NCBI GenBank assembly: GCA_902551185.1
Contig: CACDCN010000001.1
Location: 69,049 to 127,501, forward strand
Direction: 5' to 3'
From: an uncultured SAR86 cluster bacterium
Lineage (GTDB): Bacteria; Pseudomonadota; Gammaproteobacteria; Magnimaribacterales; D2472
DNA: 58,453 nucleotides
The position numbers and the translations under genes are program-made. Below are positions 3,305-12,325 of the stretch, piece by piece (position 1 is the stretch's first letter; each line of letters opens with the position of its first letter). The notes beneath the pieces are model-generated. The model had not been told where the DNA came from and ran no database searches. It saw only the letters and a list, made by a program, of their open reading frames with translations.

Positions 3305-4144
3305 TTAATTTTTGAGTTTTGAAATAATTGTTTCTAGCTCATCTGAGCTTTTATAAAAAATATTTAATTTGCCACTTTTTTTATTTCTTGCTTCTATCTC
3401 AACCTTATGACCAAAAGATTCAGACATCTCTCGCTCAATAATCAAAACATCGCTATCTTTGTGTTTTTTTGAGGTGTTTTTTAGGCCTTTTTTAGAGCCT
3501 GATAGTTTGCTTAGGTCTTTTACACTTAGTTTATTTTTTATAATATTTTCTGCAGCCGCCTCTGCCTCTTTGGGGTTAAGTGATGCAAGGAGTTTTGCAT
3601 GCCCTTTTTCTATTTGACCAGCAGAAAGCATGTCTAAAACCTTTGGGGGCAAAGATAATAACCTTAATGAGTTGGCAATTGTGCTTCTAGCCTTGCCTGT
3701 AGATGTTGCAACCTCGTCCTGGGTTAAACCAAACTCCCTTTTTAATCTATCCAACCCCCTTGCTTCTTCAACTGGATTTAAGTCCTCTCTTTGAAGGTTT
3801 TCTATTAGCGCTGATATTAAAGCATCTTGATCTTGTTTTTGGTCTATTAAACACGGAATGGTTTTTAGTTTTGCCATTTGCGAAGCCCTAAGCCTTCTTT
3901 CACCAGCAATTACCTCATACTCATTGAGGCCTAGCTCCCTTACCAAAATTGGTGAAAGGACCCCTTGTTTTTTTATAGACGCTGTTAGCTCTTCTAGTTT
4001 TTCTTTGTCGAAGTTTGTTCTTGGTTGAAATCTACCTGGTTTTATTTTTTCCAACCCCACCTCTTTAACAGACCTTTGGTTTTGGTTAGACTCTCCGAGC
4101 AAAGCATCAAGACCCTTATTAAGCGTTTTTTTGTTTTCAGACAT
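3305..4144 (-). CDS. parB: Chromosome partitioning protein ParB
   Basis: LNKGLDALLG, QPRTNF, AGERRLRA, ALIENLQREDL, HTH with GKARSTIANSLRLL. Confidence 0.97.
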   Translation of the reverse strand: MSENKKTLNKGLDALLGESNQNQRSVKEVGLEKIKPGRFQPRTNFDKEKLEELTASIKKQGVLSPILVRELGLNEYEVIAGERRLRASQMAKLKTIPCLIDQKQDQDALISALIENLQREDLNPVEEARGLDRLKREFGLTQDEVATSTGKARSTIANSLRLLSLPPKVLDMLSAGQIEKGHAKLLASLNPKEAEAAAENIIKNKLSVKDLSKLSGSKKGLKNTSKKHKDSDVLIIEREMSESFGHKVEIEARNKKSGKLNIFYKSSDELETIISKLKN

Positions 4145-4898
4145 ATTCCACCCTTCTAATAAGCTCTCCAGCTAAAGCTAAGTATGCTTTTGCCCCATAA
4201 GAGTTAGGCATATATTTTATACCAGATGTTCCATGGCTGGGCGCTTCTGCTAATTTTACATTTCTGGGTATCAAGGTATTAAAAACCAAGCTGCTGAAAT
4301 GTTTTTCTAGTTCGTGTGACACCTCTTTTGCTAAATTATTTCTCATATCAACCATTGTTCTTACAATGCCCAAAACTCTGTTTGATGACATGTTTTTGTT
4401 CGATAGGGTTTGAATTGTATTCATAAGGCCTGTGACCCCTTCAAGAGAATAGTATTCACACTGGAGTGGTATTAAGGTTCCTGATGCACAAAAAAGCCCT
4501 TCAATTGTGAGTTGGTTTAATGTTGGCGGGGTGTCCACTATTGTGTAGTCATATGAGTTTGTTATGTCTTTCAGGCTCGTGGCTAAAAAGCCTTGTTTGC
4601 TGTCGTTTCTGATTGCAACCTCTAAAGCTATAAGCTCTTCTCCCCCTGGGATAATTTTGTATTCGTCGTTTGTTTTATAGGTGCACTCTTCTATTGTTTT
4701 GTTATTAAAATAGTGGTCATAGAGAGTGTTTGCTTTTGTTTGTGAGATGCCTGCTGCTGTGGTGGCATTACCTTGTGGATCTAGGTCGATTAAAAGAACT
4801 CTTCTTTTTGTTGCGGCCAGGCTGGCTGCCAAATTAACCGCTGTGGTTGTTTTTCCAACCCCGCCCTTCTGGTTAGCGATTGCGATAACTTTGTTCAT
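4137..4898 (-). CDS. parA: Chromosome partitioning ATPase ParA/Soj
   Basis: NQKGGVGKTT deviant Walker A, DLDPQGN, PLQCEYY, IPRNVKLAEAPSHG. Confidence 0.97.
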   Translation of the reverse strand: MNKVIAIANQKGGVGKTTTAVNLAASLAATKRRVLLIDLDPQGNATTAAGISQTKANTLYDHYFNNKTIEECTYKTNDEYKIIPGGEELIALEVAIRNDSKQGFLATSLKDITNSYDYTIVDTPPTLNQLTIEGLFCASGTLIPLQCEYYSLEGVTGLMNTIQTLSNKNMSSNRVLGIVRTMVDMRNNLAKEVSHELEKHFSSLVFNTLIPRNVKLAEAPSHGTSGIKYMPNSYGAKAYLALAGELIRRVEYV

Positions 4899-5481
4899 TG
4901 TTTTTTATTATCACTATATTTCTTTCATGTTTTTTGGTGTCTTTATTAATTATTTCACATATGTATTGGTTTTTGTTTATAAGCCTTAATTCTTCTTGAA
5001 TAATTTTCTTTTTACCCTTTAAAAGGATGTGTCTGGTTTTTTGGTGGCTGTTGTTTTTTGTAAGCTTAATTATTTTTTTGGTTGAGGCGAAGGCTCTCGC
5101 GGTTATAACATCATAAACGCCCAGGCTATTGTTTTCTTTAATGGTTTGGTTAATAGTTTTGGTGTTTTTTAATGAGAGTTTTTCTACCACTGTTTTTAAA
5201 AAATAACATTTTTTAGAGCTGCTCTCTAAAAGGCTGATAGGGTTATTTGGTAACAAGATGGATAGAAGAATGCCAGGAAACCCTCCGCCAGAGCCCAGGT
5301 CTATAACGGACTCTTCCTCCTCAACCATATCAAACAAAGGGGCACAGTCAAGGATGTCTTTTTGATATACCTCTTCATGGTTTTTTCTTACAAAGATGTT
5401 GTGTGTTTGGTTAAACTCTAGGGCCAGGTTTATGAATTCATTTATTTTTTTGTTTTGGTCTTTTGTGAAAGGTTTATGCAT
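4873..5481 (-). CDS. rsmG: 16S rRNA m7G527 methyltransferase RsmG (GidB)
   Basis: DLGSGGGFPG SAM motif, ESSSKK, TARAFA; lies between mnmG and parA. Confidence 0.92.
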   Translation of the reverse strand: MHKPFTKDQNKKINEFINLALEFNQTHNIFVRKNHEEVYQKDILDCAPLFDMVEEEESVIDLGSGGGFPGILLSILLPNNPISLLESSSKKCYFLKTVVEKLSLKNTKTINQTIKENNSLGVYDVITARAFASTKKIIKLTKNNSHQKTRHILLKGKKKIIQEELRLINKNQYICEIINKDTKKHERNIVIIKNNEQSYRNR

Positions 5482-10946: not shown

Positions 10947-10955
10947 TTATCCACA
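10947..10955 (+). promoter_or_regulatory. Perfect DnaA box TTATCCACA in the rpmH-dnaA intergenic region (oriCI position / dnaA autoregulation)
   Basis: Exact consensus match; weaker 7/9 matches at 10936-10944 (TTATGTACA) and 10976-10984 (TGTAGATAT). Confidence 0.8.
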
Positions 10956-11029
10956 GAAAATTCTTATATTTATCCTGTAGATATCTTGTGAGTTTTTTAA
11001 TAGACTATAAAAACTAAAAGGAGATCATA

Positions 11030-12325
11030 TTGGAGCTTTGGAATAAGTGTTCTGAAAAACTTGAAAACACACTTTCTCAAGAAGATTTTAACACATGGAT
11101 AAGACCGCTTAAGGCAAGTGTTGAAAAAAACACACTAAGCCTTATTGCGCCCAATGATTTTATACTAGATTATATAGAAAAAAATCTATCAACCGAGATT
11201 ACAAAAATACTAAAAACACAATCGAAAAAGAAAATTAGTTTGGTATTTAAAACACACACAAAAGAAACATTTGTTGATAAATACAAGCCAGAATCTAAGA
11301 ACACCCAAACCAAACTTGTTGATACATATACGTTTGACAGTTTTGTTGAAGGAAAGTCAAACCATTTGGCTTTGGCCGCTGCTCAACAGGTTGCCAAAAA
11401 CCCGAAAGGTGACTACAACCCATTATTTATATATGGTGGGGTGGGTTTGGGTAAAACCCATTTAATGCATGCTGTGGGCAACCAGATCTTAAAAAACCAA
11501 CCAAAAAAAAGAATAGTTTATGTTCATTCTGAGAAGTTCGTTTCTGATATGGTCAAAGCCCTTCAGTTGGGCGCAATGAATGAATTTAAATCTTTTTATA
11601 GAAATGCTGATGCATTATTAATTGATGATATTCAATTTTTTGCTGGCAAAGAACAATCTCAAGAAGAATTTTTTCACACATTTAATGCTTTATTAGATAG
11701 AAACAATCAGATGATTTTAACTTGTGATAAATACCCAAAAGAAATAGATGGTCTTGAGGAAAGGTTAAAATCAAGGCTGGGTTGGGGGCTTCCAGTTGTA
11801 ATCGATCCACCAGAGCTAGAAACAAGAGCAGCAGTGTTGTTAAACAAATCAGCCTCCATGGGTGTTTTACTTCCAAATGATTGTGCTATATACATAGCTC
11901 AAAGAATAAGATCAAACATTAGGGAGTTAGAGGGGGCATTAAAAAGGGTTGTTGCTAACTCAAGATTTACAAATCAAGATATTGATCTAGCCCTTGTAAA
12001 AGATGCATTAAAAGACCTTTTTGTAATTTCGGCAAAAATGGTAAGCATAGAAAATATTCAAAAAACTGTCGCAGAGTATTACAACATCAAACTATCAGAC
12101 CTTCTTTCTAAAAGAAGAAGCAGGTCTATTACCAGGCCAAGACAAATGGCAATGGCTTTAACAAAAGAGCTCACAAATCACAGCCTCCCAGAAATAGGCG
12201 AAGCCTTTAATGGAAGAGATCATACAACGGTTTTGCATGCATGCAAAAAAATTATTGAATTAAGAAAGGAAAGCTCATCCCATGAAGAGGATTATAGAAA
12301 TCTAAATAGAGCTCTAACAAACTAA
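11030..12325 (+). CDS. dnaA: Chromosomal replication initiator DnaA
   Basis: [48 protein letters not shown] start after a GGAG SD. Confidence 0.98.

Follow-up and report, generated by a model that had tools for sequence, protein, structure and literature searches.

A local strand-composition flip of inverted polarity around a probable replication origin in a SAR86 cluster bacterium and its relatives

Why should two adjacent genes, transcribed in the same direction, lie at opposite extremes of strand composition in their genome, and why should the switch between them run in a direction expected at a terminus? This question is raised by mnmG and mnmE in a stretch of 58,453 nucleotides (nt) from an uncultured SAR86 cluster bacterium (hereafter the window, G000:C1:69049-127501), which belongs to a 920-kb assembly of 38 contigs with 33% G+C. 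Leading strands are usually rich in G and T, and their skew switches sign at oriC and at the terminus, as in the Lobry-type skews of bacterial chromosomes. In the window, the plus strand passes from G/T-rich to A/C-rich across the mnmE-mnmG spacer, which probably, as judged by its architecture, contains the chromosome origin. The gene order of the window is typical for Gammaproteobacteria. Among named organisms, the best GyrB matches come from marine Gammaproteobacteria and do not exceed 66% identity.

The flip is already visible in the raw sequence. Among the 974 sixty-base lines of the window, 5641-5700 is the most G/T-rich (T43 G10 A3 C4) and 7501-7560 the most A/C-rich (A35 C13 T11 G1). 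Both counts, together with that of 8701-8760 within mnmE (A29 C14 T15 G2), had been made by hand in an earlier reading of the letters alone (hereafter the sequence-only reading) and were reproduced exactly. The interval 4501-6720 holds 10 of the 12 most G/T-rich lines. Expressed as a raw keto skew, (G+T-A-C)/N on the plus strand, the composition amounts to +0.188 from parB to mnmG (3305-7321), to +0.165 and then -0.484 in the two parts of the spacer (7322-7400 and 7401-7559), to -0.184 over mnmE and yidC (7560-10403) and to +0.004 in the 42 kb forming the remainder of the window (16431-58453).

The coding-strand third-position AT skew (AT3) averages -0.03, with a standard deviation of 0.08, over the 635 open reading frames of at least 200 amino acids in the genome. 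The highest of all 635 values is that of mnmG (+0.40), with parA, parB and rsmG also within the top five, and the lowest is that of mnmE (-0.54, or -0.77 at 4-fold degenerate sites), yidC being third lowest. Although adjacent and co-oriented on the minus strand, mnmG and mnmE are thus found at opposite extremes of the genome at synonymous sites. Far from vanishing at such sites, an outcome that the sequence-only reading had named as fatal to its claim, the flip is strongest there, where constraint is weakest; codon positions 1 and 2 show it to a lesser degree, and it extends to protein composition.

The shape of the flip was followed with a corrected excess keto, in which each third position is set against the usage of its genome within the same codon family. 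In this way, the contributions of amino-acid content and gene orientation are removed, and the values were pooled over about 11 deep lineages, which are saturated at synonymous sites (most genomes differ by ~28% at the nucleotide level) and are still kin rather than independent samples. Offsets to the left are counted from the mnmG start and are negative, those to the right are positive. To the left, the G/T excess is about zero over the first 100-300 nt and climbs in successive 90-nt bins from -0.14 (-90..0) through +0.13, +0.07, +0.12, +0.25 and +0.17 to +0.32. Third positions along this ramp are no more conserved than elsewhere, so the slow rise within mnmG does not come from nucleotide-level constraint. 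A plateau of +0.32 to +0.41 follows from -630 to -2600, the whole left core lying between +0.26 and +0.41 per 200-nt bin (mean +0.327, 11/11 lineages). At the left edge, the excess drops from +0.26 to about +0.1 between -2800 and -3000, and it persists as a weak tail of +0.063 at offsets -6100..-3700, positive in 11/11 lineages. To the right, the value is -0.31 already at the mnmE stop, peaks at -0.39 near +1200, stays at about -0.2 until +3100 and drops at the yidC start. Bins of the right core range from -0.19 to -0.39 (mean -0.276) and none of the 11 lineages is positive; the same is true of the tail, with -0.087 in dnaA/dnaN (0/10 lineages positive) and -0.055 in recF/gyrB (0/11). No motif common to the edges of these domains was found; the search for one gave only a conserved 15-mer within rnpA, described below.

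The sequence-only reading had described the flip as local and centred on the mnmE-mnmG gap, and this description stands, synonymous sites included. Its abrupt switch, within tens of bases around 7380-7410, is what the non-coding DNA displays (about 7400 in 11/11 lineages); at synonymous sites, by contrast, the left side builds up over ~600 nt within mnmG. Likewise, a fade over ~3-4 kb describes the cores, of about 3 kb per side, and misses the weak tails, which reach ~6 kb to the left and at least 9 kb to the right. The same reading had argued that transcription could not account for the bias, rsmG/mnmG and mnmE/yidC all being on the minus strand. This argument can be carried further. The G/T-rich plus strand of the left core is the template strand of rsmG, mnmG and parA, the G/T-rich minus strand of the right core is the coding strand of mnmE and yidC, and the sign of the right tail holds across the divergent rpmH-dnaA boundary into the oppositely transcribed dnaA and dnaN. 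The bias therefore follows position and not transcription. The coordinates of the genes and domains are collected in Table 1.

Table 1. Genes, composition domains and origin-related elements around the flip (window coordinates)
Feature	Position	Strand	Basis or remark
parB	3305-4144	minus	Pfam
parA	4137-4898	minus	Pfam
rsmG	4873-5481	minus	Pfam
mnmG	5474-7321	minus	Pfam
mnmE	7560-8870	minus	Pfam
yidC	8874-10403	minus	Pfam
rnpA	10400-10807	minus	Pfam
rpmH	~10720-10856	minus	Read from the sequence
dnaA	11030-12325	plus	Pfam
dnaN, recF, gyrB	after dnaA	plus	Pfam
Left tail (parA, parB, atpI, atpB, atpE region)	1221-4520	plus	Corrected keto; weak G/T excess
Left core (rsmG, most of mnmG, parA start)	4521-6671	plus	Corrected keto; strongly G/T-rich
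Left ramp (first ~215 mnmG codons)	6672-7321	plus	Bias rises from about zero
mnmE-mnmG spacer, centre of the flip	7322-7559		Probable E. coli-type oriC
AT-rich block adjoining the mnmG start	7340-7375	plus	Near-invariant in 16 genomes with synonymous sites otherwise saturated
Degenerate DnaA box TTATTAACA	7390-7398	minus	Sequence match; 2 mismatches, R1-like in position, adjoining the AT-rich block
Second degenerate DnaA box TAATACACA	7515-7523	plus	Sequence match; opposite in orientation to the first, next to the mnmE stop
Right core (mnmE, yidC)	7560-10421	minus	Corrected keto; strongly G/T-rich
Perfect DnaA box TTATCCACA	10947-10955	plus	In the 173-bp rpmH-dnaA spacer; present in 11/11 lineages
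Right tail (dnaA, dnaN, recF, gyrB)	11030-16430	plus	Corrected keto; A/C-enriched

Gene order and spacer are shared with 15 congeneric species-level genomes and with five genomes of other families in the order. The flip appears in all 15 congeneric genomes, both at third positions and at 4-fold sites, and, when shorter loci are included, the difference in AT3 between mnmG and mnmE is +0.56 to +0.85 in each of the 21 genomes of the genus that cover both genes; in all 21, the strands that would be leading with an origin in the gap are A/C-rich. The flip is weaker in seven genomes of three other families (+0.06 to +0.61), and differences of -0.37 to +0.29 were obtained at six loci where more distant Gammaproteobacteria have mnmG and mnmE arranged in this way. 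A mis-assembled junction, the possibility against which the sequence-only reading had cautioned, is ruled out, the same junction being present in 16/16 assemblies. One genome from outside the genus (G028, locus L030) has a flip of nearly full size, with mnmG at +0.37 and mnmE at -0.24, its sister families being at +0.06 to +0.17; the amplitude thus varies within the order and is not bound to one genus.

The chromosomal setting could be read from a near-complete relative of roughly 1.3 Mb, G019, whose 1.19-Mb contig (G019:C1) was analysed in whole. Gene orientation diverges at the locus, at about 407-411 kb, and switches again near 1,070 kb, where a dif-like site (25/28 bases, G019:C1:1069382-1069409) lies between short convergent open reading frames, 658 kb from the locus. 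With this site and the second orientation switch near 1,070 kb, the locus is placed opposite the terminus. That the locus might itself be the terminus is ruled out, since the best dif-like match lies elsewhere (1,069,382 versus 411 kb) and gene orientation diverges at the locus. The terminus-like polarity at an origin region, as first stated in the sequence-only reading, is thus borne out by the oriC-like, gidA-proximal architecture, by the switch in gene orientation and by the distant dif-like site.

On one side of the spacer in G019, successive 2.4-kb windows score +0.303, +0.211 and +0.083, and on the opposite side -0.248, -0.114 and -0.042 (z = +8.4 and +5.8, and -7.2 and -3.4, respectively, versus 480 other windows with a standard deviation of 0.035 and a largest value of 0.114), and the bias decays to zero by 9-13 kb. 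On the dnaA side, in oppositely oriented genes, the value taken in the origin-directed orientation is +0.29 at 3-4 kb and +0.17 at 4-6 kb. None of the 480 other windows of this genome carries a comparable bias. With gene orientation accounted for, hardly any genome-wide replication skew is left: beyond 50 kb, the corrected statistic lies between 0 and -0.017 (about -0.01 beyond 200 kb), with normal polarity. A constant, genome-wide skew of inverted sign, which the sequence-only reading had listed as a refutation, is not what is seen. At 0.3-0.4, the local flip exceeds the effect of replication over the whole genome (~0.01, of normal sign) about 30-fold, an amplitude that calls for a process special to the origin. 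All twelve 2.4-kb windows around the dif-like site of G019 are within +/-0.06, with no local bias at the terminus, so the convergence of forks as such does not create the bias. Forks terminating beside the origin, one of the candidates in the sequence-only reading, lose weight for the same reason. The flip resembles a Lobry-type skew in being a composition switch at the origin region that is seen at synonymous sites and does not depend on how the genes are oriented. It differs in its sign, the would-be leading strand being A/C-rich, in its extent of ~3 kb (6-9 kb with the tails) rather than half a chromosome, in its amplitude relative to the genome-wide effect in the same genomes and in having no local counterpart at the terminus.

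The spacer itself resembles the oriC of E. coli, which adjoins gidA/mnmG. It lies directly upstream of mnmG, with a length of 213-241 bp in 16/16 genomes, as against about 250 bp of non-coding DNA for the E. coli type, and it has an AT-rich block on its mnmG side, inverted DnaA-box-like words within ~215-240 bp and an upstream gene transcribed toward it. Differences from E. coli are the degeneracy of the boxes (two mismatches), the lack of any GATC in 7322-7559 and the presence of mnmE instead of mioC as the neighbour. A box with at most two mismatches recurs on the minus strand at offset 65-69 in 9/11 lineages, and another on the plus strand at offset 190-202 in 7/11, plus one at 211. In other families, 1-mismatch boxes occupy the position of the first (TTATGCACA, TTATCAACA, TTTTCCACA) as well as that of the second. 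The spacers of the 11 lineages contain 23 DnaA-box-like words with up to two mismatches versus 11.4 expected; no box with at most one mismatch was found inside the spacer of the window. The oriC-like architecture is conserved over four families. Its AT-rich block is a candidate unwinding element, a candidate mnmG promoter, or both. The two parts of the spacer follow the flip in 11/11 lineages, the first 80 nt being G/T-rich and the remainder A/C-rich. No Rfam match was obtained in 1-20000, a range that includes the spacer; promoter and terminator scans gave no more sites than in shuffled sequence, and the spacer has no terminator-like hairpin. A 668-base contig from the RNA-library run X16 spans 7362-8028, from the mnmE 3' end through most of the spacer to the AT-rich block; a contig does not reveal its strand, and the library may contain DNA as well.

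The spacer is taken as the probable origin since the bias is symmetric about it, and also because of the architecture retained in four families, the switch in gene orientation and the dif-like site opposite. It is probably the chromosome origin, an assignment that comes from architecture and not from function. An origin in the rpmH-dnaA spacer is less likely. The perfect DnaA box found there probably serves dnaA autoregulation, and it may alternatively mark another origin or the second part of a split one. With an origin at this place, however, the signs would run inverted, normal and inverted again over 10 kb, whereas a centre in the gap gives a single symmetric pattern.

The nature of the process can be approached through the substitutions that it leaves. 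At 4-fold sites, the plus strand of the left core has A.247, C.097, G.188 and T.467, and the minus strand of the right core A.192, C.104, G.148 and T.556; neighbouring genes have A and T at ~0.40 each, with G and C at 0.07-0.13. The G/T-rich strand has thus lost A to G and T, with G+C going up and cytosine not depleted. Substitutions were polarised among five genomes of one clade, 93-95% identical to each other, against an outgroup at 83%. On the coding strand of mnmE/yidC, A>G amounts to 0.35 per A (70/201) versus 0.12 (60/506) in a dnaA-gyrB control, and A>T to 0.10 versus 0.045; in the right domain, the process is thus still at work. The signature is specific to adenine. It has no sharp sequence motif, adenine depletion being 0.33-0.64 when C, G or T follows on the 3' side and alike in all neighbour contexts except beside another A, so that no deaminase-like or NAC hotspot signature is recognized.

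The proteins have drifted along with the bias. MnmE has moved toward F, V, G, W and C (a fraction of 0.265 versus 0.196 in other families), RsmG and MnmG toward K, N, T, P, Q and H (0.38 versus 0.29 in other families for RsmG), and DnaA, too, has moved a little, in the sense expected from its side. At codon positions 1 and 2, mnmE, yidC, rnpA and rsmG have a diversity of 0.035-0.049, versus 0.003-0.017 in other genes, and synonymous diversity is 0.21-0.22 in mnmE/yidC versus 0.06-0.20 in their neighbours.

The repair genes were searched in sampled genomes, where a gene not found is no proof of its absence. In the five genomes that are at least 91% complete (G002, G015, G019, G026 and G031; three of the genus and two of other families), MutS, endonuclease V (EndoV) and RecJ were each found in 0/5, and uracil-DNA glycosylase (UDG) and RecA in 5/5. 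RecC was found in 0/41 genomes of the order and RNase HI in 35/41. The repair set looks strongly reduced. No PD-(D/E)XK nuclease of AddAB size was seen; the only such protein is a stand-alone, Cas4-like nuclease of 240 amino acids (L191:1447-2169, minus strand, with matches in G025-G040), present in 16/16 genomes of three sister families and in 2/25 of the genus. Loss of this nuclease fails as a cause of the strong bias, since G005 has both the nuclease and the full bias (+0.82) and G028 has the nuclease with +0.61. Nor does the loss of repair genes explain the strong bias of the genus, as EndoV, MutS, RecJ and RecC are equally not found in the sister families and RNase HI is present.

As a general class, a strand-asymmetric mutational process anchored at the origin is the explanation that we consider rather probable. 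The bias is established as such, with its symmetry, polarity, decay, independence of transcription and adenine-specific signature; we infer a mutational rather than a selected cause, as well as the entire replication mechanism outlined hereafter. An initiation event in the mnmE-mnmG gap would make one strand more mutable for a few kb on each side, namely the strand with its 3' end toward the origin, which would be the leading-strand template of each outgoing fork. The specific form proposed here, to be taken as tentative, is a late establishment of the leading strand, which was among the candidates of the sequence-only reading and is retained. Both helicases would move outward and lagging-strand priming would be prompt, with continuous leading-strand synthesis being set up late; the leading-strand template would be left single-stranded or be gap-filled separately, over a distance varying from cycle to cycle, up to several kb. 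With mismatch repair and EndoV seemingly absent, adenine changes on this template would go uncorrected, and the strand would drift to G and T, followed by the codons and then by the amino acids. An origin-anchored process is supported by the flip of the two non-coding halves of the spacer. The adenine-only signature fits the repair background, because MutS and EndoV were found in none of the five genomes and UDG in all; deamination of exposed single strands would survive as an explanation only if uracil is handled error-free, UDG being present, and hypoxanthine is not, EndoV having escaped detection. Delayed priming on both strands would by reasoning give equal exposure or no flip, and it was kept only in association with prompt lagging-strand starts. 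It is possible, albeit doubtful, that in each round of replication two forks first make only lagging strands and establish their leading strands kilobases away from oriC. If this were true, the genome would carry a readable footprint of initiation, and this would be a start mode that is not known to have been described for bacterial chromosomes.

A parallel is provided by vertebrate mitochondria, where strand asymmetry is graded by the time that the heavy strand spends single-stranded. In both cases, the G/T-rich strand undergoes a position-dependent loss of A to G, which is strongest at 4-fold sites and reshapes the proteins. In mitochondria, however, C>T is also strongly raised and the whole molecule is affected, whereas C>T is flat here and the pattern is mirror-symmetric around a bacterial origin.

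Several observations weigh against this late establishment of the leading strand, or against placing it in the gap. Damage to single-stranded DNA predicts C>T most of all, but its rates on the G/T-rich strand, 0.53 and 0.25, match those of the control, 0.51 and 0.26 (C sites are few, 49 and 75). The signature of C>T and A>G damage advanced in the sequence-only reading is thus retained for its A>G part, which is raised in mnmE/yidC, and not for its C>T part, which equals the control with cytosine not depleted, A>T being also up. In the left domain (mnmG-parB), recent T>C is only mildly raised, 0.28 versus 0.22 in the control. Synonymous diversity is up only 1.2-1.5 fold in mnmE/yidC and not at all in mnmG. 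The decay is not clean: a ramp of 600 nt is confined to the left, parA shows a dip, and the bias falls sharply where yidC starts. The sister families have the same oriC architecture and lack the same repair genes, yet their bias is much weaker. Lastly, the boxes in the gap are all degenerate, and the sole perfect one is 3.5 kb away, in the rpmH-dnaA spacer.

A different fidelity regime, in place of damage, is unlikely on the whole. The origin-flanking kilobases would be copied, or recopied, by another kind of synthesis, such as a long polymerase I tract, nick translation outward from origin-proximal 5' ends or gap filling, leaving uncorrected A:T errors mainly on one template. The restriction of the signature to A:T pairs (A>G and A>T, with flat C>T) and the failure to find MutS in 5/5 near-complete genomes both agree with it, and the decay over kilobases recalls the reach of polymerase I at ColE1 plasmid origins. 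The footprint of this polymerase beside such origins is a strand-asymmetric mutational tract fading over roughly 1-3 kb; it is, however, unidirectional, carried by a plasmid and made by an engineered error-prone polymerase, whereas a role of polymerase I is putative here, as is any acting polymerase. The total synonymous divergence, barely raised, also speaks against error-prone copying. A chromosomal comparison is that of mismatch-repair-defective E. coli, in which A:T>G:C is reported as the dominant change and varies with the template on which A lies, with a strand bias of about two-fold (10.1101/346874). The template dependence of A:T>G:C is found again here, with MutS seemingly lacking. 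The same source reports A:T transitions that favour A on the lagging-strand template, which is opposite to the orientation here if the origin is in the gap, a 5'NAC3' hotspot context, which is missing from the depletion pattern described above, and a bias extending over the genome, whereas it is local here.

Selection on origin function, less likely again, would act on the G/T-rich strand with its 3' end toward the origin, which might be kept free of secondary structure, bind SSB or a recombinase, or tune read-through transcription and R-loops. The persistence of the bias in no fewer than 11 lineages that have reached saturation at synonymous sites and the synonymous divergence without any large rise would both fit, and polarised rates cannot tell mutation from fixation bias. 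Hexamers such as TTGTTT, TGGTTT and similar G/T-rich words are 1.3-1.9 fold over synonymous-shuffle expectation on the G/T-rich strand of both domains. No single polar oligomer of the Chi type explains the bias, however; the enrichment is one of runs in general, A runs included, with no specific motif. The graded decay and the long weak tails rather suggest a dose-like process. Selection would also have to bear a cost, visible in the raised non-synonymous diversity of mnmE, yidC, rnpA and rsmG and in the protein composition that has been dragged along, and the sister families, with the same origin architecture, make do with a weak bias.

Resection is very improbable. In this scheme, both strands would be broken repeatedly at the origin, or nascent 5' ends would lie there, and 5'->3' resection over a few kb would each time expose the 3'-ended strands. 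The polarity would be exactly right, the 3'-ended strand being plus on the left and minus on the right, the kilobase scale fits, RecA is in 5/5 genomes and recF lies in the window. The machinery, on the other hand, is largely missing from the genomes searched: RecC and RecJ were not found, and the only PD-(D/E)XK protein is the small Cas4-like one, itself mostly lacking in the genus. This candidate of the sequence-only reading has lost weight accordingly. Moreover, the left bias is weakest beside the site, where resection predicts it to be strongest, C>T is predicted and not raised, and a junction that is continuous in 16/16 assemblies indicates that there is no linear end. A transcription-linked or gene-specific cause (R-loops or transcription-coupled repair acting on the two operons, an unusual codon usage, or horizontal acquisition of the genes) is more improbable still and largely refuted by the sign pattern: the G/T-rich strand of mnmE/yidC is indeed the non-template one, as in transcription-associated bias, the right core does end near the yidC start, mnmE/yidC would be head-on to the rightward fork with an origin in the gap, and the RNA-library contig gives a weak hint, at read-through only, but mnmG-parB are co-oriented with mnmE/yidC and have the opposite bias, dnaA and dnaN are oppositely transcribed and keep the plus-strand sign of their side, the neighbouring, highly expressed atp genes show none, RNase HI is widespread, non-coding DNA and amino-acid composition are also shifted, and genes and gene order are conserved across the order.

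The polarity of the flip has practical consequences. Skew-based origin finding assumes one polarity, and the strongest skew is here inverted at the origin itself, so that such finders could misread these abundant uncultured marine genomes. A literature search, which mostly did not extend to subscription journals, found no publication describing an inverted, local skew at the origin of a bacterium. If the cause is mutational, these genomes would hold a natural record of which strand is vulnerable in the first kilobases of replication, a step that is hard to observe, and they would illustrate how a local mutational field can reshape essential proteins, namely MnmE, YidC, MnmG and RsmG.

Some further features of the window deserve mention. 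Left of parB, the sizes and order of the open reading frames match those of an atp operon followed by glmU and glmS, which are putative names for these frames. A parS-like palindrome, AGTTCCACGTGGAACA, is found at 14481-14496, in the 3' end of recF just before gyrB and ~7 kb to the right of the flip; it has one mismatch to the pattern used and is the only match in the window with fewer than three. Within rnpA, ~100 nt before the yidC start, a stretch of 15 bases (coding strand TTTTTTCTGTATTTA) is 99% conserved in the 11 lineages, in which synonymous sites are otherwise saturated, and it may be a promoter or another signal for yidC.

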